A stretch of 39,993 bases of DNA from a virus (taxonomy: Duplodnaviria; Heunggongvirae; Uroviricota; Caudoviricetes): IMG/VR virus record IMGVR_UViG_2623620506_000005, positions 1 to 39,993 of that record; one strand, written 5' to 3'. This document shows, piece by piece, positions 8,301 through 34,822 of this stretch. Each line of letters begins with the position of its first letter. Position 1 is the first letter of the stretch. The notes under the pieces are model-generated. The model searched no databases. It saw only the letters and a program-made list of their open reading frames with translations, and was not told the origin of the DNA. The translations under genes were made by a program, and so were the position numbers.

Positions 8301-8325
8301 ACCCGCTTCGGCGGGTTTATTTTAT
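8301..8325 (+). terminator. rho-independent terminator downstream of hok
   Basis: Hairpin ACCCGC-TTCG-GCGGGT followed by a T-run. Confidence 0.6.
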
Positions 8326-8968: not shown

Positions 8969-8969
8969 C

Positions 8970-10019: not shown

Positions 10020-10031
10020 AAGAGGTTACTG

Positions 10032-10403: not shown

Positions 10404-10764
10404 TATGTATGAGGTTTTAGACCGCTGGGGGGCATGGGCTGCAGCAGAAAATAGTGGTGTCGACTGGCAGTCGATAGCGGCAGGCTTCAAGGGGCTTCTA
10501 CCACACGGTAAAAAGTCACGCCTCCAGTGCGATGATGATGAAGGAATTATGATTGATGGATGTGTGGCCCGGTTGCGGAAATATAAGCCAAAAGAATATG
10601 AGCTGATAATTGCACACTTTGTCATCGGGATTTCGCTCCGTACAATTGCAAAGAAGCGGAAGTGTTCAGATGGTACAATACGAAAAGACATGCAAACAGC
10701 AATGGGGTTTATTGATGGCTGCTTGTCATTTTTCATTTACTACAATGACTTAAGTTCTATGTAA
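10393..10764 (+). CDS. Q: late-gene antiterminator Q (QuuD/phage-82 type)
   Basis: ATG 10393 (RBS GAGGTGA); VLDRWGAWAA...SIAAGFKGLL...CDDDEGIMIDGCVARL matches remembered QuuD-like antiterminators. Confidence 0.75.
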   Translation: MGRDMYEVLDRWGAWAAAENSGVDWQSIAAGFKGLLPHGKKSRLQCDDDEGIMIDGCVARLRKYKPKEYELIIAHFVIGISLRTIAKKRKCSDGTIRKDMQTAMGFIDGCLSFFIYYNDLSSM

Positions 10765-10769
10765 AATCG

Positions 10770-10805
10770 TTCTACTTTCCCAACTTTTATGTGTATATAA
10801 TACCA
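10770..10805 (+). promoter_or_regulatory. candidate late promoter (PR'-like) downstream of Q
   Basis: Perfect TATAAT at 10796-10801 in the 51-bp gap between Q and the next gene; weak -35. Confidence 0.3.
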
Positions 10806-10815
10806 GGATAAAGTA

Positions 10816-11868
10816 ATGGAGAATCTTGTGAACATTCAGGCAGTAGACATTTTTTGTGGTGCGGGGGGCTTAACTTTTGGGCTAAAAAAAGCCGGGATTG
10901 AGGTTTCTCATGGTATTGATATTGATGAATCCTGCCGTTTTGCTATTGAGAGCAATAATCCTTTAACGCAGTTCATTAATCAGTCAGTTACAGAACTGCA
11001 ATCCTGCGATGTGTCTGCTATGTTCAGGGAAGGAAATATTAGATTGCTTGCTGGATGTGCTCCTTGCCAACCGTTTTCCAAGTATCGTAATCCAAATAGC
11101 CGTAAAGACGATACAAAGTGGCGTTTGTTATATGAGTTTCAAAGGCTTGTAAGTGATGTCATGCCAGAGCTTGTGACGATGGAGAATGTTCCTCAACTTA
11201 GAAACCATAAGGTTTTTGAAGGGTTTGTTAGTGCATTAAAGACTCTTGGATATCATTTGTGGTACGACGTTGTAAGATGTTCTGAGTATGGCTTACCTCA
11301 AAATAGACGTAGATTAATTCTAATTGGTTCCCAATTGGGGCCGATCAGCCTTGATCAAAAAAAAGTTAGCCGTAAAGTTACTGTTAAGGATGCTATTGGT
11401 AGGTTGCCAAAAGTAGGGGCAGGTGAGAAGCTGGAAAGCGATCCCTTGCATCGTTCGCCTAAATTGATGGATATCAATCTTAAACGAATCATGCATTCTT
11501 TACCTGGTGGTACATGGGATGACTGGCCTGAAGAAATTAGAGCAGACTGTCATAAAAAGAATTCAGGTGCTACCTATAAAAGCGTTTATGGACGGATGGT
11601 TTGGGACGATACTAGCCCTACGATAACTACCCAGTGTTATGGATATGGAAATGGACGATTTGGCCATCCTGAGCAAAATCGCGCCATAACTTTGCGTGAA
11701 GCTGCGATTTTGCAATCCTTTCCAATGGATTATAAATTCCTTGACAAGGAGACGCCTTTTTCATTCCAAAAATTGGGGACAATGATTGGAAATGCTGTTC
11801 CCCCTATAATTGGTCAGATAATAGGGGAAACATTTATCAGACATGTTGAGGGGATAAATACCCGTTAG
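10816..11868 (+). CDS. DNA (cytosine-5)-methyltransferase
   Basis: Motif I FCGAGG, motif IV PCQPFS, ENV motif, C-terminal GNAVPP. Confidence 0.9.
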   Translation: MENLVNIQAVDIFCGAGGLTFGLKKAGIEVSHGIDIDESCRFAIESNNPLTQFINQSVTELQSCDVSAMFREGNIRLLAGCAPCQPFSKYRNPNSRKDDTKWRLLYEFQRLVSDVMPELVTMENVPQLRNHKVFEGFVSALKTLGYHLWYDVVRCSEYGLPQNRRRLILIGSQLGPISLDQKKVSRKVTVKDAIGRLPKVGAGEKLESDPLHRSPKLMDINLKRIMHSLPGGTWDDWPEEIRADCHKKNSGATYKSVYGRMVWDDTSPTITTQCYGYGNGRFGHPEQNRAITLREAAILQSFPMDYKFLDKETPFSFQKLGTMIGNAVPPIIGQIIGETFIRHVEGINTR

Positions 11869-12526
11869 AGGTAATATAATTTTCTGTTGAGTTGATTAAT
11901 AAACGCAAATATAGATCAATTCTTTCTGACCTCGATTTGACTTCTTCTAAAGGGTCTATTTGACCTTTTTTAGAAAAGCTGGTACTTCCATGTGCCAGCT
12001 CATTTCTGATATCTTTAAGTAAATCTAAGTCAACGCCATTTCTACACTCTGGTGAGTTTGCAACAGTTATTCCGTAAGCTTGTGTTATTTTGTGCAATAC
12101 AGACTTGCAAACATTACCATTGAATTCTTTACGTATGTTTAATGAGGCTGAAATGATCCTTTTAGATATATCGGAACCAATTTTTTGATAAAGAGATTTT
12201 CCCGATTCATTATCTGAAATGATACGGTGCAAGATATTTACTTGGAATTTCTCCCTGAGTGATGCGTAATTTACTTCATTATCTTGCAAATGGTCATAAA
12301 TTGACTCAATGCATCCTCTGGCAGTGTTTTCAACCTGATTGTACAGCATCATGTGCACGGATGATTTTAAAATGTTAACCCTAAGGGTATTAGATTCTAT
12401 TTCATCTTTATGCGTTTGCTGATCTAAATGCTGAGTCTGAGCCTCTAAAGATGACGCAAGAGAAAGCAATTCCATAATATCTCTTGCTCTTTCTTCGTAT
12501 TCATCTCTTAAATCAATCAAACTCAT
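11837..12526 (-). CDS. HEPN-domain protein (MAE_28990/MAE_18760-like), putative RNase partner of the DUF262 protein
   Basis: 229 aa; Rx4H motif RNELAH (R174..H179) near the C-terminus; start 2 nt downstream of the DUF262 stop. Confidence 0.6.
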   Translation of the reverse strand: MSLIDLRDEYEERARDIMELLSLASSLEAQTQHLDQQTHKDEIESNTLRVNILKSSVHMMLYNQVENTARGCIESIYDHLQDNEVNYASLREKFQVNILHRIISDNESGKSLYQKIGSDISKRIISASLNIRKEFNGNVCKSVLHKITQAYGITVANSPECRNGVDLDLLKDIRNELAHGSTSFSKKGQIDPLEEVKSRSERIDLYLRLLINSTENYITSNGYLSPQHV

Positions 12527-12528
12527 AG

Positions 12529-13686
12529 TTACATTCCTAATAATTTATCTTTGACATAAAATATTCTGTTTTTGAGTTGGCTGGTGTTGTTGGCACTATC
12601 AGCAGTAACTATGGTTTCAAATTCCTCCCCAAACAGCCAGTCTCCTACAGGAATAACCGGAGCCTGTAGATGTGGATTGGCTTTTAAGGCAAGAGCAGTT
12701 CCCACTGCTATGGCTTCGTATCTTGCACGGGGGGTGGTTTTACTTGTTGCTGTCTTTTTAAACCCCATAGGAAAATGAGCATCTACAAAAGCAAGCATGC
12801 TCTCAAAATCATGTTTAAAATTGTCAACATCTTGTTGTGTAACCCTTTCGGCTTGAACATTAAGATAATTGTCAATAAAAGGAGCGACATAACCCTTATA
12901 ATTTTCTAAATCATTTAAGTATGCAAAAAATCTCAAAACTAACTCACGATGATCGCCATTCGAACGCTTCCTGTCTGATAATGGAGCTAGGCTAGCGAAA
13001 AGTGGATTTGTTGAGCAAGGGGTCACAACGTCTCTATAGAAAATTGAAGTAGCCGCATCTGAACCATGTCTAACCTCCATAGCTTCCAATCTCTTAACAC
13101 CTGAGTTTATCCTTTCGAATAAATCTCTCCTATGTTGCTCCTCAACATCACCTTTCAATTCAATAAATCTTAGTGATGCCCTTAAAAATCGTCTTTGGCG
13201 ACTAGCCAAAAGATCTGAAAATTTGAAACCCTCTAAACTTTTGAGTTCTTTTAAATCTTTTAATTCAAACTGATTGTTCCAAAAGTAATAAATTGAGCGA
13301 ATCCTTTGTGAGCCGTCAATGATTTCTACCCGACCATCCAATTCTGGATCTTCATTAAATACGTCTGCAATGTAAAGATACGGTATTGGAAAATCTAATA
13401 ATATGCTTTCGATAAATCGAGAGGCTGTTTTGATATCCCATTTGTAGTCGCGTTGATAATCAGGAATAAAAAGTTCGTTTTTGTCAGTTTCAAGATTATC
13501 GCCATACTTTTGTACAATTACTTCAACGGTCCATTCACGTACGTTGTATCCAATGCTTCTCTGTGCGAGCCTAATCTCGTTGTCGGCAGAGGTGACCAAG
13601 GCTGCGATTTCAGCCTTTTTTCTGTTTTTCGCGTTTTCATCTTGAATCTGATCAAGCTCTTCTTTAAGTTCTTTGAGTGTAGTCAT
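12529..13686 (-). CDS. DUF262 (ParB/Srx-like NTPase-nuclease) domain protein
   Basis: 385 aa; DUF262 hallmarks IPDYQRDYKW (76-83) and IIDGSQR (122-128). Confidence 0.8.
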   Translation of the reverse strand: MTTLKELKEELDQIQDENAKNRKKAEIAALVTSADNEIRLAQRSIGYNVREWTVEVIVQKYGDNLETDKNELFIPDYQRDYKWDIKTASRFIESILLDFPIPYLYIADVFNEDPELDGRVEIIDGSQRIRSIYYFWNNQFELKDLKELKSLEGFKFSDLLASRQRRFLRASLRFIELKGDVEEQHRRDLFERINSGVKRLEAMEVRHGSDAATSIFYRDVVTPCSTNPLFASLAPLSDRKRSNGDHRELVLRFFAYLNDLENYKGYVAPFIDNYLNVQAERVTQQDVDNFKHDFESMLAFVDAHFPMGFKKTATSKTTPRARYEAIAVGTALALKANPHLQAPVIPVGDWLFGEEFETIVTADSANNTSQLKNRIFYVKDKLLGM

Positions 13687-13712
13687 ATAACAGTTCCTTT
13701 AATTGAATATGG

Positions 13713-13741
13713 ATTGTAAGAAAACTATAACGCGTACGCAA
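13713..13741 (-). promoter_or_regulatory. candidate sigma70 promoter for the DUF262-HEPN operon
   Basis: Minus strand: TTGCGT (-35) - 17 bp - TACAAT (-10), about 25 bp upstream of the DUF262 ATG and its AAAGGA RBS. Confidence 0.4.
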
Positions 13742-13934
13742 AAAATATTGTATCGTGTTAAGAGTGGTTGCTTCGCCACGCAGCTTAAAACCGCCGCAGA
13801 GCGGGTTTTTTTATGCCTGAAAATTGCTGCAGTACGTTAAACGCGCTGGTGGTTGCGAATACTGATCTTTCAGCTTGCTGGCTTTTTGGACAAGAGTTAT
13901 TGGTATGTCACGTTAACCAGAAAAGGGAAAAGAC

Positions 13935-14132
13935 ATGCTAAAACAGCAGGATATGACTGAAACCGCCAGAGTGGTATTTAATGAATTAAGCGTCACCGAA
14001 CCGGCGACCGTCGGGGAAATTGCGCAGAATACTTACCTTTCACGCGAACGCTGTCAGTTAATACTGACCCAGCTTGTTATGGCGGGTCTGGCAGATTATC
14101 AGTTCGGTTGTTACAGACGCCTTCCTCAGTGA
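13935..14132 (+). CDS. small winged-helix-like DNA-binding protein (possible regulator)
   Basis: 65 aa, RBS AAAAGGGAAAAG; HTH-like PATVGEIAQNTYLSRERCQLILTQLV. Confidence 0.4.
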   Translation: MLKQQDMTETARVVFNELSVTEPATVGEIAQNTYLSRERCQLILTQLVMAGLADYQFGCYRRLPQ

Positions 14133-14282
14133 AGGCTTTTTTATTTGTGGTAATGGGCGGCTGGTGGGTGTTAGCGGCACCTGCCAGCCATCTGCTCATG
14201 CGTTGGGGTCACAAGCAAACCTCAGGCCCATCTGCTTTGCGCAAAAGCGGTATGAGCCTATCAGAGAAGTGCTTATTGATCT

Positions 14283-15329
14283 ATGGCTAATACTGTAAAA
14301 ATATCCAGTTGTGAGTTAATCAACGCTGATTGCCTGGAATTTATCCAGACCTTACCGGAAAACTCTGTCGATCTTATAGTCACAGACCCGCCATACTTTA
14401 AAGTGAAACCCGAGGGCTGGGATAACCAGTGGAAGGGCGACGATGATTATCTGAAATGGCTGGACCGATGTCTGGCGCAGTTCTGGCGGGTACTGAAGCC
14501 TGCCGGAAGTCTCTACCTGTTCTGTGGTCATCGCCTGGCATCTGATATCGAAATCATGATGCGTCAGCGCTTTAATGTACTGAACCACATTATCTGGGCG
14601 AAGCCGTCCGGACGCTGGAACGGATGCAACAAGGAAAGCCTGCGGGCGTATTTCCCGGCAACAGAACGCATTCTGTTTGCAGAACATTATCAGGGGCCAT
14701 ACCAGCCCAAAAATGACGGCTATGCGGCAAAGGGGCGCGAGCTAAAACAGCACGTCATGGCCCCGCTGATTTCTTACTTTCGTGATGCGCGTGAATCACT
14801 GGGAATAACGTCAAAACAGATAGCGGAAGCCACCGGAAAGAAAAACATGGCTTCGCACTGGTTTGGTACCAGTCAGTGGCAGTTACCGAACGAGGGTGAT
14901 TACAACAAATTGCAGGAGTTGTTTGCGCGTGTTGCGGCAGAAAAACATCAGCGCGGGGAACTGGAAAAGCCACACCACCAGCTGGTCAGCGCATACAGTG
15001 AACTGAACCGGCAATATGCCAGCCTGCTGGCAGAGTACAAATCTTTACGGCGTTATTTTTCCGTATCGGCTGCTGTTCCTTATACGGATGTCTGGACGTA
15101 CAAGCCAGTGCAGTATTATCCGGGCAAACATCCCTGTGAAAAACCAGCGGATATGTTACGTCAGATAATTACCGCCAGCAGTCGTCCGGGAGACTTGGTT
15201 GTCGACTTTTTTATGGGGTCAGGCTCCACAATTAAAGCCGCAATGACGCTGGGGCGTCGGGCAATTGGTGTGGAACTGGAAAAAGAGAGATTTAATCAAA
15301 CTGTAACTGTAATAGAAAATAATCTTTAA
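14283..15329 (+). CDS. DNA N6-adenine/N4-cytosine methyltransferase (beta-class, DPPY)
   Basis: 348 aa; DPPY at 35-38; C-terminal AdoMet motif VVDFFMGSGST. Confidence 0.85.
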   Translation: MANTVKISSCELINADCLEFIQTLPENSVDLIVTDPPYFKVKPEGWDNQWKGDDDYLKWLDRCLAQFWRVLKPAGSLYLFCGHRLASDIEIMMRQRFNVLNHIIWAKPSGRWNGCNKESLRAYFPATERILFAEHYQGPYQPKNDGYAAKGRELKQHVMAPLISYFRDARESLGITSKQIAEATGKKNMASHWFGTSQWQLPNEGDYNKLQELFARVAAEKHQRGELEKPHHQLVSAYSELNRQYASLLAEYKSLRRYFSVSAAVPYTDVWTYKPVQYYPGKHPCEKPADMLRQIITASSRPGDLVVDFFMGSGSTIKAAMTLGRRAIGVELEKERFNQTVTVIENNL

Positions 15330-15494
15330 ACACGCTTTCTATTATTTATTAATTATTGAAACAATAAAAACATATGAGTATATTTACAAATATTGACATT
15401 GATTTTTATTGAAAAAATATCTTATCTCGTTAATATTCTCACCCGGTTCCGAGGGGGTATTGCTGGGGCATTTTATTTTTCTTGAGGAACCATT

Positions 15495-15570
<76 letters not shown>

Positions 15571-15573
15571 TAT

Positions 15574-15648
<75 letters not shown>

Positions 15649-16014
15649 GCAGAGGACGATGCTAGGCCGTTTCAGGCACTGACACATTATATGTGTGGGA
15701 TGTTTTTAACCTAACTCCTTACCACATCCTGTTCTGTAATGAATATTATTTATTACGGTACCAGTGCTGTTTTTTTACAATAGTGGAATGGTGCATTACT
15801 GGTGGAGATTTGTATTTCCTGGCAGGGCTGGTAATGTATCATTCCGGTGTTGTAAATGACACCCCAGAGACGTTCCTCAGTGCGAGGGTGGTTGAAAGAG
15901 TCGGTTTTGCGGGAAACCACAGCATCCATGCAGGACTGGATGTTTCGGGAGGCACCCGACGTCTCTGGTCATAATAAAATCATCGTTTTCTCTTCATGCC
16001 ATTTTATGCCATAG

Positions 16015-16040
16015 ACCGCCACGCCAGGCGGTTTTTTTTT
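16015..16040 (+). terminator. rho-independent terminator
   Basis: ACCGCC-loop-GGCGGT hairpin followed by nine T. Confidence 0.5.
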
Positions 16041-16222
16041 ATTCAGAATTCAGTATTTATGCGGCTCGCTACGGCGGGCCTTTTTCATATCCGCGCCACG
16101 CCCGGCGAATATCAAAAACCACAGAGCCTTTCAGGGGTGAGCTTACGGGATGGTCAGTGTGACTTTCTCTGTGGGCTGGTCACCCCCGGGCGCAGGCTCA
16201 CCCACTAAAAGGAAAAGTCACG

Positions 16223-16648
16223 ATGTTTGGTATTTTCAAAAAGAAAACCCGCAAGGCCATTACTGAAGTGAAGAAGATGGAGAACCGCGACGCAGTGGAG
16301 GCGACTGTCTGGGGCGCGTATTCCATAGCATTCGCCGACGGCACCTGTGATGCGAAAGAAATCGCTGTGCTGGAGAAAACCATTGCAGCACTTCCTGCTT
16401 TTGCGCCGTTCTCGGGTGAGATTGCACAAATGAGTGCAAATATCCGCGCCCGTTATGAAGCGTCGCCGCGCTCTGCCAATGCTGAAGCCCTTCGCCAGCT
16501 GGCTGATGTTGCCGGTACTGATGATGCAGTTAATGTACTGTGCCTGTGTCTGGATATCGCAGACCAGGATGGCATTGGTCCGGATGAAGAAGCGCAGCTC
16601 AAGAAAATTGCTCAGGCGCTGCAGTTACCGCTGGAGCAGTACCTGTGA
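16223..16648 (+). CDS. TerB-like (tellurite-resistance TerB fold) protein, tentative
   Basis: 141 aa, RBS AAAAGGAAAAG; acidic helical protein with ADG...E and DIADQDG motifs; assignment from memory. Confidence 0.4.
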   Translation: MFGIFKKKTRKAITEVKKMENRDAVEATVWGAYSIAFADGTCDAKEIAVLEKTIAALPAFAPFSGEIAQMSANIRARYEASPRSANAEALRQLADVAGTDDAVNVLCLCLDIADQDGIGPDEEAQLKKIAQALQLPLEQYL

Positions 16649-16797
16649 AAAGTGCGCGCCTTGTGCTGGCTGCCATCCTGCTGTTTCTGGTAGTGGCGGT
16701 GGATTTCACCGGACGGCTGATGTCGGTGCTGGCAGATGGTGTGCTGGTGGCGATGGCGCTGGTCGTGCTCCGGCCTTTACTGCGTAAATCTGAATAA
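16645..16797 (+). CDS. small hydrophobic membrane protein (50 aa)
   Basis: GTG start overlapping the upstream stop (GTGA); highly hydrophobic; not in ORF track (<60 aa). Confidence 0.3.
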   Translation: MKSARLVLAAILLFLVVAVDFTGRLMSVLADGVLVAMALVVLRPLLRKSE

Positions 16798-16886
16798 CAC
16801 CACACAAAAGGCATCTGCGGGTGCCTTTAACGGGGTGTTTTTTACGGGCCGCTGGTGGCCCTTTTTTATTTACAGGAGAAAAAAGT

Positions 16887-17279
16887 ATGTCTGAACCCTT
16901 ATCCGGTTCCGGCACAGCTGCGGCGCTCGGTGGGGCGACGGTGTACGGGCTGTTTACCGGAACGGATTTCGGGATTGTGTTTGGTGCGTTCGCCGGGGCG
17001 TTATTTGTGGCAACGATGCCGCAGGCGCTTTCAGCCTGGCGTGTGGCGGCGCATTTTCTGGTGTCGTTCATTATCGGCGTGCTGGGCGCAGAGGTTCTGG
17101 CATCCTGGCTGGTAAAGCATACAGAGTTTGACGGTGCACCTGTCGACGCATTGTGTGCAGTACTGGTGTCAGTGGTGTCGGTGAAGATTCTCTCGTTCAT
17201 CCACCAGCAGGATATTGCATCGCTGGTGTCCGGCCTGTTCTCCCGCCTGCGGGGTGGAGGAGGCGGCAATGTTAAGTAA
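16887..17279 (+). CDS. holin-like multi-TM membrane protein
   Basis: ATG 16887 after CAGGAGAA RBS; Gly/Ala-rich transmembrane segments; directly upstream of the endolysin. Confidence 0.5.
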   Translation: MSEPLSGSGTAAALGGATVYGLFTGTDFGIVFGAFAGALFVATMPQALSAWRVAAHFLVSFIIGVLGAEVLASWLVKHTEFDGAPVDALCAVLVSVVSVKILSFIHQQDIASLVSGLFSRLRGGGGGNVK

Positions 17280-19680: not shown

Positions 19681-20190
19681 GTGGCTACGCAGACTGAAGT
19701 TGCCAGGCATTTGAGTCTGACCGATCGCCAGCTTCGCAGATTGCAGAAATTGCCTGGTGCCCCGGTCTCGAATAAACGGGGGCATCATGACTTGGATGCC
19801 TGGCGTGATTTTTACATATCGTATCTGAGGAGAAGTAAAAATGATGTGTCTGATGGTGATAGCGAAGAAGACTATGAAGAAAAATTACTTATCGCCAGAT
19901 GGAAATTGACTGAAGAACAGGCAATAGCACAGCAATTAAAAAATCAGGTAACTGAAGGCAGACTTATTGATTCAGGGTTTTGCGTTTTCGCTCTCAGCAA
20001 ACTGGCGATGGCATTGTCCAGTACGCTTGATTCCATTCCTTTATCCATGCAGCGACAGTTTCCGGATTTAACTCCGCGTCATATTGATCATCTGAAAACT
20101 CTTATCGCAAAGGGAGCGAATCAGTGCGCGCGGGCAGGGGATAAATTACCGGAGTTACTCGATGAATATATCCGAATTACAGCTGAATAA
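19681..20190 (+). CDS. nu1: terminase small subunit (lambda Nu1-like)
   Basis: GTG start with GAGGTAAG RBS; C-terminal half aligns with remembered lambda Nu1 (FCVFALSKLA...LSMQRQFPDL...LPELLDEYI). Confidence 0.8.
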   Translation: MATQTEVARHLSLTDRQLRRLQKLPGAPVSNKRGHHDLDAWRDFYISYLRRSKNDVSDGDSEEDYEEKLLIARWKLTEEQAIAQQLKNQVTEGRLIDSGFCVFALSKLAMALSSTLDSIPLSMQRQFPDLTPRHIDHLKTLIAKGANQCARAGDKLPELLDEYIRITAE

Positions 20191-22078
20191 TATGATGATC
20201 GCCGTCACAACCGCATTGCAGCCACTAATAAGGGCACTGCCGGTGACGCCAGTTGAATGGGCTGATCAAAATTATTATCTGCCTAAAGAGTCGTCATATG
20301 TTGATGGAGAATGGAAGACCCTGCCGTTTCAGGTTGCCATCATGAACAGCATGGGAAATGACCGGATCCGTACTGTTAATCTGATTAAATCGGCGCGTGT
20401 GGGTTACACCAAAATGCTGCTGGGCGTGGTTGGGTATTTTATTGAGCATAAATCCCGTAACAGCCTGCTCTTCCAGCCGACAGATTCTGCAGCTGAAGAT
20501 TTCATGAAAGCGCATGTGGAGGCTACGCTGCGGGATGTCCCCTGCCTTAAAGCGTTATCGCCATGGCTGGGAAGAAAGCACCGTGATAATACACTCACCC
20601 TGAAGCGTTTTTCCTCCGGCGTGGGGTTCTGGTGCCTGGGCGGTGCCGCAGCTAAAAACTACCGTGAAAAATCTGTGGATGTGGTCTGCTATGACGAACT
20701 CTCCTCGTTTGAACCGGATGTGGAAAAAGAAGGTTCGCCGACGCTTCTTGGCGATAAACGTATCGAAGGCTCGGTATGGCCTAAATCCATACGCGGTTCA
20801 ACGCCAAAAATTAAAGGTTCCTGTCAGATTGAGAAAGCCGCGAATGAATCTGCGCATTTCATGCGGTTTTATGTTCCTTGCCCTCATTGCGGGGAGACCC
20901 AGTATCTGAAGTTTGGCGATGATGCGACGCCGTTTGGCCTGAAATGGGAGAAGGGTAAACCGGAAACGGTGTATTACCTGTGTGAACACAATGGCTGTGT
21001 GATCCGCCAGTCGGAACTTGACCAGACCGACGGACGCTGGATTTGTGACAATACCGGGATGTGGACGTGTGACGGCCTGACATTTTACAGCGCCGGTGAT
21101 GAGGAGATACCGCCACCGCGCTCAATCACGTACCACGTGTGGACGGCGTACAGTCCGTTCACCACCTGGGTACAGATTGTTTATGACTGGCTGGATGCGC
21201 TGAAGGATCCGAACGGCGTCAAGACGTTTATTAACACCACGCTCGGAGAACCCTATGAAGAGGCCGTGGCAGAAAAGCTGAGTTTCGAGTTATTGCTGGA
21301 AAAGGTCTGTCACTATGGCGCGCAGGTTCCCCTGCGGGTGGTTTACCTGACTGCCGGGATCGACTCCCAGAAAGATCGCTATGAAATTTATGTCTGGGGC
21401 TGGGCTCCCGGCGAAGAAGCCTTTCTGATTGACAAGCAAATTATCATGGGGCGACCGGAAGACGAGGACACCCTTAAACGTGTTGATGCGGTGATCAGGA
21501 AAAAATACCTCCATGCTGACGGTACTGAAATTTCCATTTCCCGCGTCTGCTGGGATACCGGTGGTATCGACCAGGACATTGTGTATCAGCGTTCCAGAAA
21601 ACACGGCACTTTTTTTGTGCTTCCCATTAAAGGGGCATCGGTGTACGGCAAGCCGGTGATCACCATGCCCAAAAAGCGCAACCAGCGTGGGGTGTTTTTG
21701 TGTGAGGTGGGCTCTGATACCGTCAAGGAAATGCTGTACGCCCGTTTTGCCCTGCCGGTGGTCTCTGCCAGTGACGCCGCCCCGTATACCTTCCGTTTTC
21801 CGGATAACCCGGACATTTTTTCGGAAGAAGAGGCGCGTCAGATCGTGGCGGAAGAACTGGTGGAGAAGGTGGTTAATGGCAGGGTGAAACTGCTGTGGGA
21901 TAAAAAAGGGCGACGCAACGAAGCCCTAGACTGCCTGGTATATGCCTATGCTGCCCTGCGTATTTCAGTTCAGCGATGGCAGCTGGACCTTGAGGCACTG
22001 GCCCGGGCACGAAGAGACGAGCAGGACGAGGATGATATGAGTCTGGAAGAAATCGCGGCTGCACTGAGTGGAGGATAA
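20162..22078 (+). CDS. A: terminase large subunit (lambda gpA-like)
   Basis: 638 aa; overlaps the Nu1 3' end as in lambda; gpA-family features and position. Confidence 0.9.
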   Translation: MNISELQLNNMMIAVTTALQPLIRALPVTPVEWADQNYYLPKESSYVDGEWKTLPFQVAIMNSMGNDRIRTVNLIKSARVGYTKMLLGVVGYFIEHKSRNSLLFQPTDSAAEDFMKAHVEATLRDVPCLKALSPWLGRKHRDNTLTLKRFSSGVGFWCLGGAAAKNYREKSVDVVCYDELSSFEPDVEKEGSPTLLGDKRIEGSVWPKSIRGSTPKIKGSCQIEKAANESAHFMRFYVPCPHCGETQYLKFGDDATPFGLKWEKGKPETVYYLCEHNGCVIRQSELDQTDGRWICDNTGMWTCDGLTFYSAGDEEIPPPRSITYHVWTAYSPFTTWVQIVYDWLDALKDPNGVKTFINTTLGEPYEEAVAEKLSFELLLEKVCHYGAQVPLRVVYLTAGIDSQKDRYEIYVWGWAPGEEAFLIDKQIIMGRPEDEDTLKRVDAVIRKKYLHADGTEISISRVCWDTGGIDQDIVYQRSRKHGTFFVLPIKGASVYGKPVITMPKKRNQRGVFLCEVGSDTVKEMLYARFALPVVSASDAAPYTFRFPDNPDIFSEEEARQIVAEELVEKVVNGRVKLLWDKKGRRNEALDCLVYAYAALRISVQRWQLDLEALARARRDEQDEDDMSLEEIAAALSGG

Positions 22079-22081
22079 GTG

Positions 22082-22291
22082 ATGATTTATACACATGAGA
22101 TGCTTTGCGAAGCGCGTCGGGCGCTGCATGAACTGATGATAGGGCGTGCTGTGGCTTCTGTCAGTAAGAACGGACGACAGGTACAGTATTCGCGGGCGAC
22201 GATTAATGAATTACGGCGATATATTGAGGAAATTGAAAGTGCGCTTGGAATGTCCGGTCGTCGCCGTGGCCCTGCAGGAGTACGACTGTGA
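22082..22291 (+). CDS. W: head-tail joining protein W (lambda gpW-like)
   Basis: RALHELMIGRAVASVSKNGRQVQYS...RRRGPAG closely parallels lambda gpW; start at ATG 22082 (GTG 22079 also possible). Confidence 0.8.
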   Translation: MIYTHEMLCEARRALHELMIGRAVASVSKNGRQVQYSRATINELRRYIEEIESALGMSGRRRGPAGVRL

Positions 22292-23859
22292 GCGGGGGAC
22301 TGGTGGATCTTCACGGGCAACCTTTGCGGCAGAGTATGGGATATTCCGGCAGCGGCTCCGGATTCGGAGGGCAACTGGCTGAATGGTTGCCAGCACCGGA
22401 AAGTGCCGATGTGGCGCTCTTACCTTCCATTCAACTGGGTAACGCCCGTGCAGACGATCTGGTCCGTAACAACGGTATTGCCGCAAATGCTGTAGAAATT
22501 CATAAAGACCATATCGTCGGTCACATGTTTCGCCTGAGCTACCGACCCAACTGGCGCTGGCTGGGGATGTCAGAAGCTGATTCGCATGCCTTTATTGAAG
22601 ATGTGGAGGCGGCGTGGATGGAATATTGCGATCCGGTATTTGGTTCGATGGATGTGGAAGGGCGTCGCTCGTTTACCGAATTTATTCGTGAAGGGGTGGG
22701 GGTCCATACTTTTAACGGTGAAATTTTTGTCCAGCCCGTATGGGATACGGAATCCACGTCATTATTCAGAACAAAATTCAAGACCATCAGTCCGAAGCGC
22801 GTCAGCACGCCCGGTTATGGCATCGGCGATCGTTTTATGCGTGCCGGAGTGGAAATCAACCGTCACGGAAAGGCGATGGCTTATCATGTTCAGGACGATG
22901 ACTGGCCTGGCTACGGTGTCAGCAACTGGACACGGATTGCGGCGACGCTGCCCTCCGGGCGACCGGGAATGATCCATGTGTTTCAGCCGCAGGAGGACGG
23001 ACAGACGCGCGGGGCCAACCAGTTTTATTCCGTGATGGAGCGCCTCAAGATGCTCGACACACTACAGGCCACGCAACTGCAGTCGGCGGTGGTGCGGGCG
23101 ATGTATGCCGCGACGATTGAATCCACACTGGATTCGGAAAAAGCATTTGAATATATCGCCGGGGTGGGAGATGGCGGTAAAAATCCCCTGAACACCATCA
23201 TGAAAGGCTATGCGCGCTATTACGCCACCAATACGGTAAAGATGGGGGGGGTTCGTATTCCGCATCTTTATCCGGGGGATTCACTGAATCTGCAGACAGC
23301 ACAGAATGCGGATAATGGTTTTTCTGAACTGGAAAAGGCGCTGTTACGTTACATTGCTGCCGGACTGGGCGTGTCCTATGAGCAGCTTTCCCGCGATTAT
23401 TCACAGGTCAGTTATTCCAGTGCCAGAGCATCCGCCAATGAGTCGTGGCGGTATTTTATGGGGAAACGAAAATTTGTGGCCAGCCGACTGGCGTCACAGA
23501 TGTTTGCCTGCTGGCTGGAGGAAGCCCTTATTCGCGGTGTGATCCGCCCACCGAAATCCCGTTTCTCATTCTGGGAGGCCCGTTCCGGGTGGTGTCGTGC
23601 CGAGTGGATTGGTGCCGGCCGCATGGCGATTGATGGCCTTAAGGAGGTGCAGGAGGCGGTGATGCGTATTGAAGGTGGCCTGAGCACGTACGAGAAGGAG
23701 CTGGCCCTGATGGGTGATGACTATCAGGAGATTTTCCGCCAGCAACTGCGTGAAAGCCAGGAGCGACAGGCGGCTGGTCTTCCCCGCCCCATCTGGATAA
23801 AGGATACGTTTCAGCAGCAGATCCGACAGACAACGGGAGAAAAAGTCGATGCGTCGTAA
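22288..23859 (+). CDS. B: portal protein (lambda gpB-like)
   Basis: 523 aa; GTG start after GGAG; position after A/W and lambda-B-like length. Confidence 0.85.
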   Translation: MSGGLVDLHGQPLRQSMGYSGSGSGFGGQLAEWLPAPESADVALLPSIQLGNARADDLVRNNGIAANAVEIHKDHIVGHMFRLSYRPNWRWLGMSEADSHAFIEDVEAAWMEYCDPVFGSMDVEGRRSFTEFIREGVGVHTFNGEIFVQPVWDTESTSLFRTKFKTISPKRVSTPGYGIGDRFMRAGVEINRHGKAMAYHVQDDDWPGYGVSNWTRIAATLPSGRPGMIHVFQPQEDGQTRGANQFYSVMERLKMLDTLQATQLQSAVVRAMYAATIESTLDSEKAFEYIAGVGDGGKNPLNTIMKGYARYYATNTVKMGGVRIPHLYPGDSLNLQTAQNADNGFSELEKALLRYIAAGLGVSYEQLSRDYSQVSYSSARASANESWRYFMGKRKFVASRLASQMFACWLEEALIRGVIRPPKSRFSFWEARSGWCRAEWIGAGRMAIDGLKEVQEAVMRIEGGLSTYEKELALMGDDYQEIFRQQLRESQERQAAGLPRPIWIKDTFQQQIRQTTGEKVDAS

Positions 23860-25465
23860 TTTATCGCATATTGCCGCCATGGCATTTAATGAACCGCTTT
23901 TACTGGAGCCCGCCTATGCGCGGGTTTTCTTTTGCGCGCTGGGTAAAGAGATGGGGGCCGGCAGCCTTGCCGTTCCTCAGCAGGCTGTTCAGCTTGATGC
24001 TGACGGTATGCAACTGGCTGTGACTGACTATATGGCGGGCGGTCAGCGCCCGGCGAAGAGTTACCAGGTGAAGAATGGCATCGCCATTCTGCCAGTGAGC
24101 GGCACGCTGGTGCATAAACTGGGTACCCTGCGGCCTTACTCCGGCATGACAGGCTATGACGGTCTGACTGCTCGTCTTCAGATGGCGGTGAATGATCCGG
24201 ATGTGCGCGGCATTTTGCTGGATATCGACAGCCCAGGCGGTCAGGCTGCCGGGGCGTTTGACTGTGCTGACATGATTTACCGTCTGCGGGAACAGAAGCC
24301 CGTGTGGGCGCTGTGTAATGACATGGCCTGTTCAGCCGCCATGTTGCTGGCGGCAGCCTGTACCCGTCGGCTGGTCACGCAGACGGCAAAAATTGGTTCG
24401 ATTGGCGTGATGATGGCGCACACCAGTTATGAGAAACAACTGGCACAGGAAGGGGTGGACATCACGCTGATTTACTCCGGGCAGCACAAGGTTGACGGCA
24501 ACAGTATTCAGGCATTGCCGGCAGGTGTGCGTGCAGATTTTCAGCGCCGTATTGATGAGGCCCGCCGGATGTTTGTCGACAAGGTGGCGCTTTATACGGG
24601 GCTGAGTTCAGAGGCTTTGATGAATACCGAGGCTGCCGTTTATGACGGTCAGGCAGGCATTGATGCAGGCCTGGCTGATCAACTGATTAATGCTGCAGAT
24701 GCCGTTGAAGTGATGGTTTCTGCACTGAATGACTCTGTTACGAAGGAGAATGCAATGACTGTTAAAAATCTCACCGTTGCTGAAGCGGTGGCCCAGGAAA
24801 ATCAGCGCGTGATGGGGATCCTGAATTGTCAGGAGGCGAAAGGGCGCGAGCAACTGGCGCAAATGCTGGCAGGTCAGCCTGGAATGACGGTAGAGCAGGC
24901 GAAAGCGTTCCTGGCTGCTGTGCCTGCTGCCAGTGTGGCAAATACAGGTGATCAGATTATGGGGCTGCCGGAAGCAAAGGGGCGTGAGCAACTGGCACAG
25001 ATGCTGGCAGGTCAGCCGGGGATGACGGTGGAGCAGGCGAAAGCGTTTCTGGCGGCAGCCCCTGCTGCTGGTGCTGCAGGCACAGGCGATCAGATTATGG
25101 CGTTACCGGAAGCAAAAGGGCGTGAACAACTCGCGCAGGCGCTGGCTGAACAGCCGGGAATGACCGTTGACCAGGCCAAAACGTTACTGGCGGCGGCACC
25201 GGTTGCTGGTTCTGCAAGTGTCGGCGATCAGATTATGGCGCTGCCGGAGGCAAAAGGGCGCGAGCAACTTGCACAGGCACTGACAGAACAACCGGGAATG
25301 ACGGTGGCGCAGGCGAAAACGCTGCTGGCAGCCGCGCCGGCGGCATCGCAACCGTCACAGGAAACACTTTTTGATCGCTTTATGGCACAGCATGCTGCCA
25401 GTGCGGTTTCCGGTGGCGGAACTGCCGGGCGCGGGGAGGAAGACCTGCTGATGAGTATGCCGTAA
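23849..25465 (+). CDS. C: head maturation protease / scaffold (lambda gpC-like S49 peptidase with repeat-containing C-terminal region)
   Basis: 538 aa; ClpP/S49-like N-terminal half; C-terminal region has four tandem 46-aa repeats. Confidence 0.85.
   Translation: MRRNLSHIAAMAFNEPLLLEPAYARVFFCALGKEMGAGSLAVPQQAVQLDADGMQLAVTDYMAGGQRPAKSYQVKNGIAILPVSGTLVHKLGTLRPYSGMTGYDGLTARLQMAVNDPDVRGILLDIDSPGGQAAGAFDCADMIYRLREQKPVWALCNDMACSAAMLLAAACTRRLVTQTAKIGSIGVMMAHTSYEKQLAQEGVDITLIYSGQHKVDGNSIQALPAGVRADFQRRIDEARRMFVDKVALYTGLSSEALMNTEAAVYDGQAGIDAGLADQLINAADAVEVMVSALNDSVTKENAMTVKNLTVAEAVAQENQRVMGILNCQEAKGREQLAQMLAGQPGMTVEQAKAFLAAVPAASVANTGDQIMGLPEAKGREQLAQMLAGQPGMTVEQAKAFLAAAPAAGAAGTGDQIMALPEAKGREQLAQALAEQPGMTVDQAKTLLAAAPVAGSASVGDQIMALPEAKGREQLAQALTEQPGMTVAQAKTLLAAAPAASQPSQETLFDRFMAQHAASAVSGGGTAGRGEEDLLMSMP
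24833..25350 (+). repeat. tandem direct repeat, about 138 bp x 3.7 copies, inside the protease/scaffold gene
   Basis: Unit EAKGREQLAQMLAGQPGMTVEQAKAFLAAxPAA...GDQIM(A/G)LP starts at 24833, 24971, 25109, 25247 (last copy partial). Confidence 0.85.
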
Positions 25466-25503: not shown

Positions 25504-25839
25504 ATGATTAAAACCACCACGGAAAAGCGCGCGGATGTGCACATTTTTGCCGGAAACGATCCGGCGCATACCGCAAAAGCCACCAGTGGTATCAGTGCCG
25601 CCATGCCTGCACTGACGCCACTGATGCTGGATGACGCCACCGGTAAACTGGTGGCATGGGATGGTCAGAAAGCCGGAACGGCAGTGGGCGTGCTGGCTCT
25701 GGCGCTTACCGGGACCGAGTCCATGCTGACGTACTACAAAAGCGGTACGTTTGCCACTGAGTCGCTGGTCTGGCCTGACTCTGTGGATGCGGTGAAAAAA
25801 GCCAACGCATTTGTGGGAAGTGCCATCAGCCACGCCTGA
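25504..25839 (+). CDS. D: head decoration protein (lambda gpD-like)
   Basis: NDPAHTA...MPALTPLMLD...KLVAWDG...YKSGTF...AISHA aligns with remembered lambda gpD. Confidence 0.9.
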   Translation: MIKTTTEKRADVHIFAGNDPAHTAKATSGISAAMPALTPLMLDDATGKLVAWDGQKAGTAVGVLALALTGTESMLTYYKSGTFATESLVWPDSVDAVKKANAFVGSAISHA

Positions 25840-25907: not shown

Positions 25908-26936
25908 ATGGGGTTATTTACCACGCGTCAGTTACTCGGGTACACCGAGCAGAAAGTGAAATTTCGTGCGCTGTTTCTGGAGCTGTTCTTTCGTCGCACG
26001 ATCACTTTCCATACTCAGGAAGTCATGCTGGATAAAATTACCGGCAAAACACCGGTCGCGGCGTATGTGTCTCCGGTGGTGTCAGGCAAAGTGCTGCGCA
26101 GCCGTGGTGGTGAAACCCGCGTGTTACGTCCCGGTTATGTAAAACCAAAACACCGCTTTGATTATCAGCAGGCAGTGGAACGTCTTCCGGGAGAGGATCC
26201 GGCCCGCCTTAATGACCCGGCTTACCGCCGTCTGCGTATTCTGACAGACAACCTGAAACAGGAAGAGCAGGCGATTGTGCAGGTGGAAGAAATGCAGGCG
26301 GTCAGTGCCGTTCTGCAGGGTAAATACACCATGAGCGGCGAGCAGTTTGAGACGGTGGAAGTGGATTTTGGGCGTTCTGCCGCCAATAACATTACGCAGG
26401 CTGGCGGACGCGAATGGTCACAGCAGAATGCTGACACCTTCGATCCGACGCATGATCTGGATGCGTACTGCGATTTCGCTTCCGGCACCATCAATATCGC
26501 AATTATGGACGGCACGGTCTGGCGTATGCTGAACGGTTTTAAACTGTTCCGTGAAAAACTGGATACCCGCCGTGGCTCCAAATCTGAGCTGGAAACGGCA
26601 CTGAAAGACCTGGGCTCCGTGGTTTCCTTTAAAGGTTATTACGGCGATCTGGCAATTGTGGTGGCGAAGACAACGTATGTTGACGAAAACGGGGATGAAC
26701 AGCGTTATCTGCCGGAAGGTACACTGATTCTGGGGAACACTCAGGCGGAAGGCGTCCGTTGTTATGGTGCCATTCAGGATAATCAGGCACTGAGTGAAGG
26801 GATCACCTCTGCGATTCGTTATCCGAAACACTGGGAGGAAGTGGGGGATCCTGGTTGCGAATATACCATGACGCAGTCTGCGCCGTTGATGGTGCTGCCG
26901 GATCCGGATGCGTTTGTGGTGGTTCAGGTGAAATAA
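25908..26936 (+). CDS. E: major capsid protein (lambda gpE-like)
   Basis: 342 aa; position after D; lambda E-like length. Confidence 0.85.
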   Translation: MGLFTTRQLLGYTEQKVKFRALFLELFFRRTITFHTQEVMLDKITGKTPVAAYVSPVVSGKVLRSRGGETRVLRPGYVKPKHRFDYQQAVERLPGEDPARLNDPAYRRLRILTDNLKQEEQAIVQVEEMQAVSAVLQGKYTMSGEQFETVEVDFGRSAANNITQAGGREWSQQNADTFDPTHDLDAYCDFASGTINIAIMDGTVWRMLNGFKLFREKLDTRRGSKSELETALKDLGSVVSFKGYYGDLAIVVAKTTYVDENGDEQRYLPEGTLILGNTQAEGVRCYGAIQDNQALSEGITSAIRYPKHWEEVGDPGCEYTMTQSAPLMVLPDPDAFVVVQVK

Positions 26937-33346: not shown

Positions 33347-34822
33347 ATGTCCGGATTACATGGTGTTGAAACCATTGAACTGACGACAGGCACGGTTGCC
33401 GTGCAGACCATCTCCACGGCAGTGATTGGCCTGGTGGGGACAGCGCCGGACGCCTCTGGTGGTGTGTGCGCTTCCGGCACAGCCGGCTCCTGGCTGCTGG
33501 GAACGGCGCTGGATTTCACGGCGAAACAGGAAGGTCGGGCCGGTAATAAGATTTCGGTTGTTGCTGTGGCTGCCACAGAACAAAACGCGCAGACAGTTGC
33601 CTCACTGAAAGGTACGACCCTGACGATAACACTGGGGACGGACGAACACAGCCAGGTTAACGCCACGGCGGACCGTGTGACTGAAGTGGTGAATGCGCTG
33701 GGGGATTCGCCTGTGACGGCGGCTGTCAGCACCCTGAATGCAGGAGGCGCTGAAAATAAAGTGGTGTTGCCGTTCAGCCTGACGTTATCCGGCGGAGAAG
33801 ATGAGGCGTTCCCGGTCAATACACCAGTGGTGGTGGCAGGGGCCATTACTCAGGCAGGGAAACTGGGCACAGCCGGAACATTATACCCGGCCCTGCGGGA
33901 TATTTTTGACCAGACTGGTGCGCTGGTGATTGTGGTGCGCGCAGAAAGTAAAACAAAGGCGAAAGAGGCCGAACAGCGTGCGGCGGTGATTCAGGCCATG
34001 GAGGCACTGACAGAAAGTAAGGGCGTGACAGGCTATCAACCGCGCATCCTCATTGCCACGGGGTACAGTGAGGATGATGGCGTGGCAAAGGCGCTGGAAA
34101 CGTATGCCGCGAAGCTGCGGGCAGTGGCCTATATTGACTCGCCCTCAATGGCAACGCCGCAGGATGTGGTTCAGCGGCGCGCGTCATTTGGTGGGCGTGT
34201 GGAGCTGCTGCGTCCGCGCGTGTCAGTGACGGATGACAGCGGGCAAACGATATTTCGTCCATATTCGGCTCGTGCTGCCGGGCTGCGTGCCCGTATTGAT
34301 TACGAAAAAGGGTGGTGGTGGTCCAAATCAAACCAGGACGTGATGAATATCACCGGTCTGGAACAGGTGGATACGTTTATTCTCGGGGAGCAGAACTGCA
34401 CGGCAAACCTGCTGAACATGGAAAATATCTCCACCATTATTCGCCATGACGGTTTTAAACACTGGGGTAACCGTCTGTGCACATCCCACAGTCAGTGGCG
34501 CTTTGAGCCGGTACGCCGCACTGCAGATGTGATTGAGGACAGTATCCAGGAGGCCATGTTGCCTTATGTCGATCGCCCGCTTGATCGGGATGTGGCAGAC
34601 GACATTCTTGGCAGCATTAATGCCTATATGCGTCAGCTTAAAAATCTGGGTGCGATCCACGGTGGCAGCGCCTGGCTGAATGATGAACTGAATACAACTG
34701 AAACCCTGGCGGCAGGGCAGTTGTATATCGATTATGACTTTGGGCCGAAGTCACCACTGGAGCGCCTGACACTGCGGGCAATGATTAACAATAAACTGGC
34801 GCTGGAGGAACTGACGGTATGA
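33347..34822 (+). CDS. FI: contractile tail sheath protein (P2 FI-like)
   Basis: 491 aa; sheath-like N-terminus (MSGLHGVETIELTTGT...) and size; followed by tube gene. Confidence 0.85.
   Translation: MSGLHGVETIELTTGTVAVQTISTAVIGLVGTAPDASGGVCASGTAGSWLLGTALDFTAKQEGRAGNKISVVAVAATEQNAQTVASLKGTTLTITLGTDEHSQVNATADRVTEVVNALGDSPVTAAVSTLNAGGAENKVVLPFSLTLSGGEDEAFPVNTPVVVAGAITQAGKLGTAGTLYPALRDIFDQTGALVIVVRAESKTKAKEAEQRAAVIQAMEALTESKGVTGYQPRILIATGYSEDDGVAKALETYAAKLRAVAYIDSPSMATPQDVVQRRASFGGRVELLRPRVSVTDDSGQTIFRPYSARAAGLRARIDYEKGWWWSKSNQDVMNITGLEQVDTFILGEQNCTANLLNMENISTIIRHDGFKHWGNRLCTSHSQWRFEPVRRTADVIEDSIQEAMLPYVDRPLDRDVADDILGSINAYMRQLKNLGAIHGGSAWLNDELNTTETLAAGQLYIDYDFGPKSPLERLTLRAMINNKLALEELTV

Follow-up and report, generated by a model that had tools for sequence, protein, structure and literature searches.

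A tandemly repeated scaffold module in a lambda C/Nu3-type head gene: an old, stably inherited family trait with a probable role in multivalent contact

Introduction

The closest described counterparts of the locus analysed here are the C/Nu3 genes of phage lambda and genes 5/6 of phage 21. In lambda the head genes follow the order portal, C/Nu3, D and E, the protease gpC has the Ser/Lys pair of S49 peptidases, and a Shine-Dalgarno (SD) sequence and an ATG precede the nested scaffold reading frame; all of these features recur in our locus. Two-hybrid assays found interactions of lambda Nu3 with E, with C and with itself, and Nu3 is required for incorporation of the portal (PMC3224144).

In phage 21, genes 5 and 6 contain repeats that are annotated as the Tri1 box, Tri box and Tri3 box in GenBank M81255.1, where their function is noted as unknown, and our literature search on Tri boxes or Nu3 repeats found nothing. 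Gifsy-1 and other Salmonella and E. coli prophages encode gpC homologs (annotated as ‘S49 family peptidase’) with three-copy arrays in the equivalent place, and each unit of these arrays is orthologous to the phage 21 unit at the same position.

A further comparison, in function only, can be made with gp8 of P22 and gp7 of phi29, which are internal scaffolds with a small helix-loop-helix. In P22-type scaffolds this helix-loop-helix is the coat-binding element and is found at the extreme C terminus.

The window referred to below is the whole stretch of 39,993 nucleotides from a Caudoviricetes virus record (IMGVR_UViG_2623620506_000005) that was analysed, and all features described lie on its plus strand. 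We asked how a 138-bp tandem repeat in its head protease/scaffold gene compares with these systems.

Results

The repeat is located in a homolog of lambda gpC, in which an S49 prohead protease is joined to a scaffold domain of the Nu3 type; the ORF (23849..25465) has 538 codons plus stop. The Pfam Peptidase_S49 domain (PF01343) covers aa 146–290 (24284..24718) with E=2.9e-33, a score that passes the cut-off of that family, and the gene product matches phrog_53, ‘head maturation protease’, with E=6.9e-217; the initial annotation had thus named the host gene correctly. In its protease part the protein shares 59.7% of residues with lambda gpC and 73.2% with phage 21 gp5. Ser162 (24332-24334) aligns with Ser166 of lambda gpC, which we take to be the catalytic residue, and Lys214 (24488-24490) aligns with Lys218; among 62 homologs K214 is invariant and S162 nearly so. 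The protein is thus a putative protease in which both the S49 (SppA-like) domain and its Ser/Lys pair are conserved.

The surrounding genes are arranged as in lambda. Upstream, a lambda-family portal gene (22288..23859; Pfam Phage_portal_2, E=9.2e-95) overlaps the start of the protease gene, and downstream are genes for a gpD-like head decoration protein (25504..25839; Pfam HDPD, E=6.5e-23) and a gpE-like major capsid protein (25908..26936; Pfam Phage_cap_E, E=5.4e-66). The latter, which is 58.8% identical to lambda gpE, is the presumed partner of the scaffold. The same order of portal, protease/scaffold and gpD/gpE-type genes is found in the relatives L004-L007.

Within codons 200–330 of the protease gene, the only strong combination of SD and start codon is AAGGAG-N6-ATG at Met303, the SD being located at 24743..24748. 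The in-frame ORF that starts here (24755..25465) would encode a Nu3-like scaffolding protein of 236 aa. The equivalent Met is present in all 22 aligned C-terminal regions of homologs, and SD-like sequences accompany it in L004, L005, phage 21 (the annotated RBS of gene 6) and lambda, at gpC codon 309. We infer that the Met303 start corresponds to that of phage 21 gene 6, with translation from it predicted. The scaffold region matches the PHROG scaffold families phrog_8399, phrog_8940 and phrog_1999, and the unit HMM and alignments find in it both the conserved Nu3 module (IMGILxCxEAxGRE...PGMTV...LAAAP) and the DRxM / LLxxxP tail. The repeats occupy 77% of this nested ORF.

Tandem Repeats Finder reported one array (24832..25329; period 138, 3.6 copies, 80% matches, score 569), which is free of indels. 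Copies of EAKGREQLAQ begin at aa 329, 375, 421 and 467 (nt 24833, 24971, 25109 and 25247), in agreement with the four in-frame units of 46 aa described initially. All four conserved cores are complete, and only copy 4 has the C-terminal tail in place of a linker. On the other hand, the description of the copies as near-perfect, with few substitutions at the DNA level, is not borne out: in pairwise comparisons the cores are 75-85% identical in nucleotides and 78-97% in amino acids, the units as such being 76-94% identical in amino acids, and the longest exact stretch common to any two units is 18 nt.

The differences between the copies are mainly silent. Over 34 codons, units 1 and 2 have 14 synonymous and only 2 non-synonymous differences, and 33 of their 34 core residues are identical. 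Pairwise dS for the window units is 0.7-2.1, i.e. synonymous sites are saturated, while dN/dS is 0.03-0.17, and the substitution pattern thus indicates that selection on the array acts at the level of protein and not of DNA. This bears on whether the array might be an element that functions as DNA or RNA, for instance as a set of binding sites, a structured RNA or a hotspot of recombination, its overlap with the gene being incidental. A phage 21 genome record does mark matches to the CII-binding-site pattern in the homologous region, and the unit contains the Chi-like GCTGGTGC. However, conservation is seen in amino acids while synonymous positions are nearly randomised, neither the array nor its surroundings contain an exact Chi site (the 11 of the window are confined to 3–17.2 kb), and in folding the RNA at the internal start has no advantage over shuffled controls (z = 0.02). 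We regard an element of this kind as having almost no likelihood.

To place the array among its relatives, units were counted with a unit HMM. Phage 21 gp5 is matched three times, exactly on the annotated Tri boxes, whose coordinates translate to the window's repeat unit; lambda gpC is matched once and the window protein four times. The two loci resemble each other in the gene that is affected, the nested scaffold ORF, the position of the repeats and the unit itself (IMxxxEAxGREQLAxxLAxxPGMTVExAxxxLAA). They differ in that phage 21 has three units and the window four, and in that the phage 21 units are old and distinct (mutually 53-56% identical in amino acids and 56-65% in nucleotides), unlike those of the window. 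All four window units are closest to Tri1 (similarity 0.59-0.74, within a range of 0.47-0.74 against any phage 21 unit), yet they are nearer to each other (mean 0.84). They are not one-to-one orthologs of Tri1, Tri2 and Tri3, there being four of them, all nearest to Tri1, and the window array is thus not a Tri-box array that merely gained a unit. In the three-copy group, by comparison, units are positional orthologs, with a similarity of 0.74 at equal position and 0.53 at different positions, and the Gifsy-1-type arrays have one unit fewer than the window.

The single module of lambda gpC is located at aa 368-401 and is 53-59% identical to the window units, compared with about 60% identity in the protease. 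It is preceded by about 47 aa rich in Ser/Thr/Ala/Gln that the window protein lacks, while the DRLM and C-terminal LL..P tail motifs are common to both proteins. If codon 309 is its start, the lambda scaffold has 131 aa, as opposed to 236 in the window.

Copy number does vary among related prophages, as had been expected: the HMM finds a single unit in lambda, three in phage 21 and in the majority of Salmonella and E. coli relatives, four in the window and five in rare variants. The view that such an array is unusual in an essential morphogenesis gene fares less well. The 120 closest protein clusters have 2-5 copies, with at least 3 in all but one of them and 3 as the commonest number (75 clusters), and by this count multi-copy arrays are the norm in the window's gpC subfamily. 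In a search of 1.84 billion cluster representatives, 130 of the best 150 of 753 matches are single-copy. One four-copy cluster holds 826 member sequences. Distant two-copy proteins also occur (P0141 and P0261), on contigs that are too short or IS-disrupted to be informative about the genomic context.

Of 5,426 complete E. coli genomes, 105 contain a colinear array of the same four-copy form, with nucleotide identities of 80-99.4%; every sampled match among the 105 keeps four copies, with one 9-nt and one 5-nt difference as the only length variants. Proteins of 538 aa with equal length and order are also found in Citrobacter, Salmonella, E. marmotae and E. albertii. These data speak to two readings of the array. 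The first is that it is mis-assembled and that the true copy number is different. Many ORFs from short-read or metagenome assemblies (P0124-P0135) begin, end or shift frame inside such arrays, and the five-copy variants stem from draft assemblies. In the window, however, reads can be placed uniquely owing to the 15-25% of positions that distinguish the copies, the reading frame is unbroken through all four units, and the same length and order recur in the complete genomes and in the other enterobacteria listed above. We therefore consider a mis-assembly here to be hardly conceivable. The warning that the array is an assembly artefact hotspot does not apply to the window array; as a general caution it has some basis, since short-read and metagenome ORFs start or end inside arrays of this type.

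The second reading is that the repeat is recent and recombination-prone, as the initial annotation had it, its copy number changing often and acting as a contingency-like dial on scaffold length. Fresh events are indeed seen in relatives: units 2 and 3 of the five-copy L005 are 100% identical across 129 nt, the four-copy array of L004 is homogenised (87-97% nucleotide identity, with exact runs of up to 61 nt), hybrid-unit and large-duplication variants occur (P0101 and P0044), and copy number in the family spans 1 to 5. By their sequences, the relatives thus include both fresh and old arrays. The window array has the marks of the latter. Its units are only 75-85% identical with dS of 0.7-2.1, and their longest shared exact run of 18 nt is below the roughly 23-27 bp commonly given as the length that RecA needs to recombine DNA efficiently in E. 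coli. Furthermore, four copies are kept in every sampled match of the 105 complete genomes, and the five-copy variants are single sequences, each from a single draft contig, as opposed to the 826 members of the four-copy cluster. A recent and unstable repeat is therefore very unlikely, even though saturated dS need not date the duplication, as unequal recombination between diverged co-resident prophages could create copies that already differ.

The unit HMM, the unit alignment and AlphaFold delimit four modules. Module 1 (aa 319-361, 24803..24931; QRVMGILNCQEAKGREQLAQMLAGQPGMTVEQAKAFLAAVPAA) has predicted helices at 310-325, 334-341 and 348-357; module 2 (aa 368-407, 24950..25069; DQIMGLPEAKGREQLAQMLAGQPGMTVEQAKAFLAAAPAA) at 363-371, 380-387 and 394-403 (pLDDT about 78-79); module 3 (aa 414-453, 25088..25207; DQIMALPEAKGREQLAQALAEQPGMTVDQAKTLLAAAPVA) at 412-417, 426-433 and 440-449 (pLDDT about 82); and module 4 (aa 460-499, 25226..25345; DQIMALPEAKGREQLAQALTEQPGMTVAQAKTLLAAAPAA) at 458-463, 472-479 and 486-495 (pLDDT about 83). 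In the prediction each unit opens with a short ‘IM’ helix and continues as a helix-loop-helix (EAxGRExLAxxLA - xxPGMT - VExAKxxLAAAP), and variable Gly/Ala/Ser linkers of about 6-8 aa would join the units like beads on a string. In keeping with this, the pLDDT of the units is 77-84 and that of the linkers is below or close to 50, and in the unit alignment 15 core positions are invariant or nearly so, also across distant phages, while the linkers vary. The title of Medina et al. (2011) calls lambda gpNu3 intrinsically disordered, and the unit helices may accordingly form only upon binding. The proposal that the unit is a protein-binding module finds some support here, a conserved core, variable linkers and a predicted small helical module all being compatible with it.

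Searches for known relatives of the module gave the following. Neither Pfam nor NCBIfam contains a model of the unit; DUF732, HU and T2SSK were considered as its family and rejected, their matches being weak and under cut-offs. Sequence searches of the PDB with the scaffold and with the unit profile returned matches at chance level only. The scaffold-only AlphaFold model (mean pLDDT 55.8) had no Foldseek match in the PDB under E=2, and the resemblance of its top matches to the RuvA/RecR helix-hairpin-helix was dismissed as not significant, the query model being of low confidence. The full-length model matched only S49/ClpP proteases among viral structures. PDB sequence searches and Foldseek likewise detected no relationship in sequence or fold between the unit and P22 gp8 or phi29 gp7, whose scaffolds oligomerise and have one terminal helix-loop-helix, while the window element is internal, tandem and fused to a protease.

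The array is followed by a single-copy C-terminal tail (aa 500-538, 25346..25462) with predicted helices at 504-515 and 529-535. Its conserved FDRFM motif (25370-25384) is similar to DQIM, with which a unit starts, and it ends with the last residues of the protein, LLMSMP (25445-25462). Among 62 homologs F508 and M512 are invariant and F511 and P538 nearly so, and comparison of the tails of homologs, lambda and phage 21 shows that the tail motifs are never duplicated.

The genes next to the scaffold argue against a matching of its length to the capsid. Scaffolds with three, four and five copies all adjoin coat proteins that are 96.8-98.8% identical to that of the window, and the idea that copy number is tuned to the coat protein was rejected because such near-identical coats go with all three numbers; one unit more or fewer thus appears to be tolerated. 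This tolerance would also suit a scheme in which the units serve chiefly as flexible spacers or for self-association, their number being nearly neutral, and the tail binds the coat. The nearly invariant and never duplicated tail motifs, the self-interaction of lambda Nu3 and the extreme C-terminal position of the coat-binding helix-loop-helix in P22-type scaffolds are in line with such a scheme, and it could be the tail (FDRFM ... LLMSMP) that actually binds the coat. Nevertheless, a mere spacer would not be expected to hold 33 of 34 core residues across saturated synonymous divergence, as in units 1 and 2, nor 15 core positions (nearly) invariant across distant phages. We judge this scheme to be unlikely, although self-association as a role overlaps with the explanation that we prefer.

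Discussion

Taken together, these results make it likely that the array consists of a conserved module of about 38 aa, present in internal head scaffolding proteins of the lambda Nu3 type, that was amplified four-fold in tandem and has a role in multivalent contact. The repeat is real but old and stably inherited, and is an ordinary trait of its family, given that phage 21 carries the module three times and lambda once; it is not a recent or unstable array.

In the mechanism that we propose, the C-terminal third of the gene would also be made separately as a scaffold from the SD and ATG at Met303, in parallel to lambda C/Nu3 and phage 21 5/6. The modules would be the sites where the scaffold, and the protease that shares this domain, contact the inner side of the gpE-type shell and/or each other, such that four units per chain would yield a multivalent scaffold. 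For contact with the coat, the two-hybrid interaction of lambda Nu3 with E provides indirect support. The units probably act as multivalent contact modules in procapsid assembly, and the scaffold would be degraded by the protease once assembly is done.

As to its history, the single copy would be the common state, as in lambda and most distant relatives, and the module would have been amplified within the enterobacterial subfamily. At some past point the array of the window's lineage would have been homogenised, after which nearly every synonymous site diverged while the peptide was held constant. Because of this divergence, the array would now be stably inherited.

A bolder extension, about which we are doubtful, is that the module is a unit of valency (one coat, portal or scaffold subunit per copy) that has been amplified repeatedly and independently in lambda-like phages, successful arrays being stabilised as synonymous divergence removes the substrates for recombination. 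Examples of repeated amplification could be the three old copies of the phage 21 group, the separately homogenised four of the window, the fresh duplications in L004 and L005, and distant two-copy arrays like that of P0141.

These findings leave current views of lambda-type head assembly standing. For annotation, they mean that the gene is more than an ‘S49 family peptidase’, namely a protease with a nested Nu3-type scaffold, whose repeats are copies of a conserved scaffold module not described in Pfam or NCBIfam. The natural versions with 1, 3, 4 and 5 copies offer a simple genetic series with which to study the binding partner of the module and the effect of valency. If the valency reading is true, one to five copies on an almost identical coat would constitute a natural test series for the control that scaffold valency exerts on the nucleation and fidelity of procapsid assembly.

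Array and predicted nested scaffold

A single long-period repeat was detected in the window by Tandem Repeats Finder, at 24832..25329 (period 138, 3.6 copies, 80% matches, no indels, score 569). It is in frame with the ORF at 23849..25465 (538 aa), in which the EAKGREQLAQ motif begins at residues 329, 375, 421 and 467 (nt 24833, 24971, 25109 and 25247). Residues 146-290 of the encoded protein form a Peptidase_S49 domain (E=2.9e-33), and its PHROG match is phrog_53, 'head maturation protease'. Its gene lies among those for a lambda-type large terminase (20162-22078), a lambda-family portal (22288-23859), a gpD-like decoration protein (25504-25839) and a gpE-like major capsid protein (25908-26936), which is the lambda B-C/Nu3-D-E arrangement.

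An SD sequence, AAGGAG (24743-24748), precedes the in-frame ATG of Met303 (24755) by 6 nt, and no other start codon within codons 200-330 has a strong SD. The equivalent elements in phage 21 are the annotated RBS and start of gene 6, the Nu3 analogue, and they are also found in two related prophages and at codon 309 of lambda gpC. Thus, the window very probably encodes a nested Nu3-like scaffold of 236 aa (24755-25465), as predicted from its sequence; the array and its linkers (residues 319-499) make up 77% of this product. In RefSeq, lambda nu3 begins at gpC codon 239 (position 833 of L003, the lambda genome NC_001416), and the SD and ATG common to phage 21 gene 6 and the window are at codon 309 (GGAGG-N4-ATG, position 1043). 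In UniProt, Nu3 starts at Met309.

The repeat seen in the initial annotation is real, but 'near-perfect' overstated it: in pairwise comparison the unit cores are only 75-85% identical in nucleotides and 78-97% in amino acids. Nei-Gojobori counts give a dS of 0.7-2.1 (essentially saturated) and a dN/dS of 0.03-0.17; units 1 and 2, for example, have 14 synonymous and only 2 non-synonymous differences over 34 codons. The array is therefore protein-coding and under strong purifying selection, within the scaffold domain common to the protease and the nested product. A role of the array at the DNA or RNA level is disfavoured, since synonymous sites are randomised, the array has no Chi site and the RNA around the internal start has no special fold.

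The repeat unit and its family

Alignment of the four units with those of relatives defines a core of ~38 aa, x-I-M/L-x-L/C-x-E-A-x-G-R-E-x-L-A-x-x-L-A-x-x-P-G-M-T-V-x-x-A-K/R-x-x-L-A-A-A-P, with 15 invariant or nearly invariant positions, followed by a variable Gly/Ala/Ser linker of 6-8 aa. Unit 4 is followed by a single-copy tail with an FDRFM motif, similar to the DQIM of the unit start, and a conserved C-terminal LLMSMP. The unit HMM matches lambda gpC once (residues 368-401) and phage 21 gp5 three times, coinciding with the repeat_region features 'Tri1 box', 'Tri box' and 'Tri3 box' of GenBank M81255.1, which carry the note 'function unknown; putative'. For phage 21 the repeat was thus recorded decades ago, and the window array is a four-copy member of that family, as compared to three copies in phage 21. 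Neither Pfam nor NCBIfam has a model for the unit; only PHROG scaffold families cover it, each matching four times.

An AlphaFold2 model of the full protein (62 homologs) has a mean pLDDT of 61, with the units best predicted (77-84) and the linkers between them below or close to 50. Each unit is modelled as a short helix (DQIMAL), a helix (REQLAQxL), a loop (xxQPGMT) and a helix (VxQAKxLLAA). This helix-loop-helix is only a prediction, as the scaffold-only model is poorer (pLDDT 55.8), a Foldseek search of the PDB returned nothing below E=2 (top rows: helix-hairpin-helix regions of RuvA and RecR) and PDB sequence searches gave no match to the scaffold or unit. Since lambda gpNu3 is described, in the title of one paper, as intrinsically disordered, binding may be needed for the helices to form. 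The expectation of a modular protein unit is supported by the conserved core, the variable linkers and the predicted fold.

The HMM was applied to the 120 closest protein clusters together with the window, lambda and phage 21 proteins: it counts three copies in 75, four in 42, five in 3, two in 2 and one in lambda only. Copy number thus varies among relatives, as anticipated, and an array of at least three copies is usual in this set, not unusual as first proposed. A search of 1.84 billion cluster representatives gave 753 proteins matching the unit profile at E≤0.001; the best 150 have one copy in 130 cases, two in 15 and three in 5, and the remainder are presumably almost all single-copy, since multi-copy proteins score highest. 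The usual state is therefore a single copy. Arrays characterise an enterobacterial subfamily, and a few duplications outside it appear to have arisen independently (e.g. in the homolog P0141). In long single-copy proteins, a median of 49 aa separates the unit end from the C terminus. Among 50,697 phage records, good matches are limited to Gifsy-1 and the phage 21 group, with coverage of the window scaffold below 80% in every case.

Stability and age of the array

Of 5,426 complete E. coli genomes, 105 contain the array gene over its full length; a search with the array region alone gives a single colinear alignment in 105 genomes, at 80-99.4% identity. In 60 sampled rows, record and query spans are equal except for one 5-nt and one recurrent 9-nt difference. 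Four copies are therefore kept across substantial divergence, which rules out the suspected mis-assembly for the window and argues against instability. Many top unit matches in metagenome and short-read assemblies (P0124-P0135) are fragments that start or stop within an array, or lose the frame after a unit; short-read assemblies thus often break or err in such arrays, while the window is sound.

The array also does not appear recent, given the saturated dS and a longest exact run of 18 nt between any two units, though dS is no clean clock because copies could be born diverged by unequal recombination between different co-resident prophages. In the three-copy group, unit identity is 0.74 at the same position and 0.53 at different positions; the units are positional orthologs, which indicates an old triplication. 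The window units have a mean identity of 0.84 to each other versus 0.47-0.74 to phage 21 units, which points to turnover or homogenisation in the window lineage, followed by long divergence. Arrays of relatives span the whole range of ages: unit-to-unit nucleotide identity is 56-65% in phage 21, it is 87-97% in the prophage locus L004 (exact runs up to 61 nt), and two units of the five-copy locus L005, a single draft contig, are 100% identical over 129 nt. In E. coli, rare rearranged relatives seem to have arisen by unequal recombination inside their arrays: P0044 (657 aa, with a 156-aa internal duplication taking in two units), P0101/P0102 (551 aa, with a hybrid unit) and P0001/P0002 (five copies, 43-aa period).

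Other features of the window

Chi (GCTGGTGG) occurs 11 times, versus 1.76 expected from shuffles, always in the early/regulatory half (3005-17208) and never in head or tail genes; Chi-rich lambdoid phages are reportedly the subject of a 2025 paper (PMC12315714). Tandem repeats at 3629-3711 (TGTCACGACA x5, then ACAGATAAAGAT x2.9), inside a 358-aa ORF (3236-4312) with no Pfam match, look like origin iterons within a replication-initiator gene, as in lambda O. A 932-aa ORF at 5001-7799 (+) combines a Cap4-nuclease/LmuA-like N terminus with an AAA ATPase domain and, at the C terminus, a SEC-C motif; this candidate defence gene of the prophage has no clean fit to a named system. Modification and restriction-like genes cluster at 10816-15329: a C5 cytosine methylase (10816-11868), an NsnA/GmrSD_N-like protein (12529-13686, minus strand; PADLOC NsnA 1.1e-45) adjoined by an unassigned 229-aa ORF (11837-12526, minus strand), and an N6/N4 methylase (14283-15329). 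Genes for tRNA-Thr(TGT) and tRNA-Gly(TCC) lie side by side within the prophage at 15495-15648. In the window, a contractile tail (sheath protein, 33347-34822) accompanies the lambda-type head module; in the Cronobacter locus L006 (coat protein 96.8% identical), lambda-type siphovirus tail genes Z and U follow the head genes (6741-7479). Near-identical head modules are thus combined with different tails, a case of head/tail mosaicism.

Proposed role and copy number

The units described here are probably contact modules through which scaffold and protease would attach to the inner face of the growing shell, to each other, or both; four units per chain would provide multivalency, and the protease would subsequently remove the scaffold. 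Such a role is supported by lambda Nu3, which interacts with E, with C and with itself and is required for portal incorporation (PMC3224144). The P22 scaffold, too, has a helix-loop-helix element, which binds the coat protein. In the main rival explanation, coat protein is bound by the invariant single-copy tail, and the units serve as spacers or in self-association.

Lambda and phage 21 heads are the same size, and the two phages, with one and three copies, belong to the same head-gene family. Furthermore, the gpE-like coat proteins of three-copy (L006 and L007) and five-copy (L005) loci are 96.8-98.8% identical to that of the four-copy window locus. Copy number does not track the capsid, and one unit more or fewer seems to be tolerated. 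This natural copy-number series offers a handle, of modest value, on scaffold valency.
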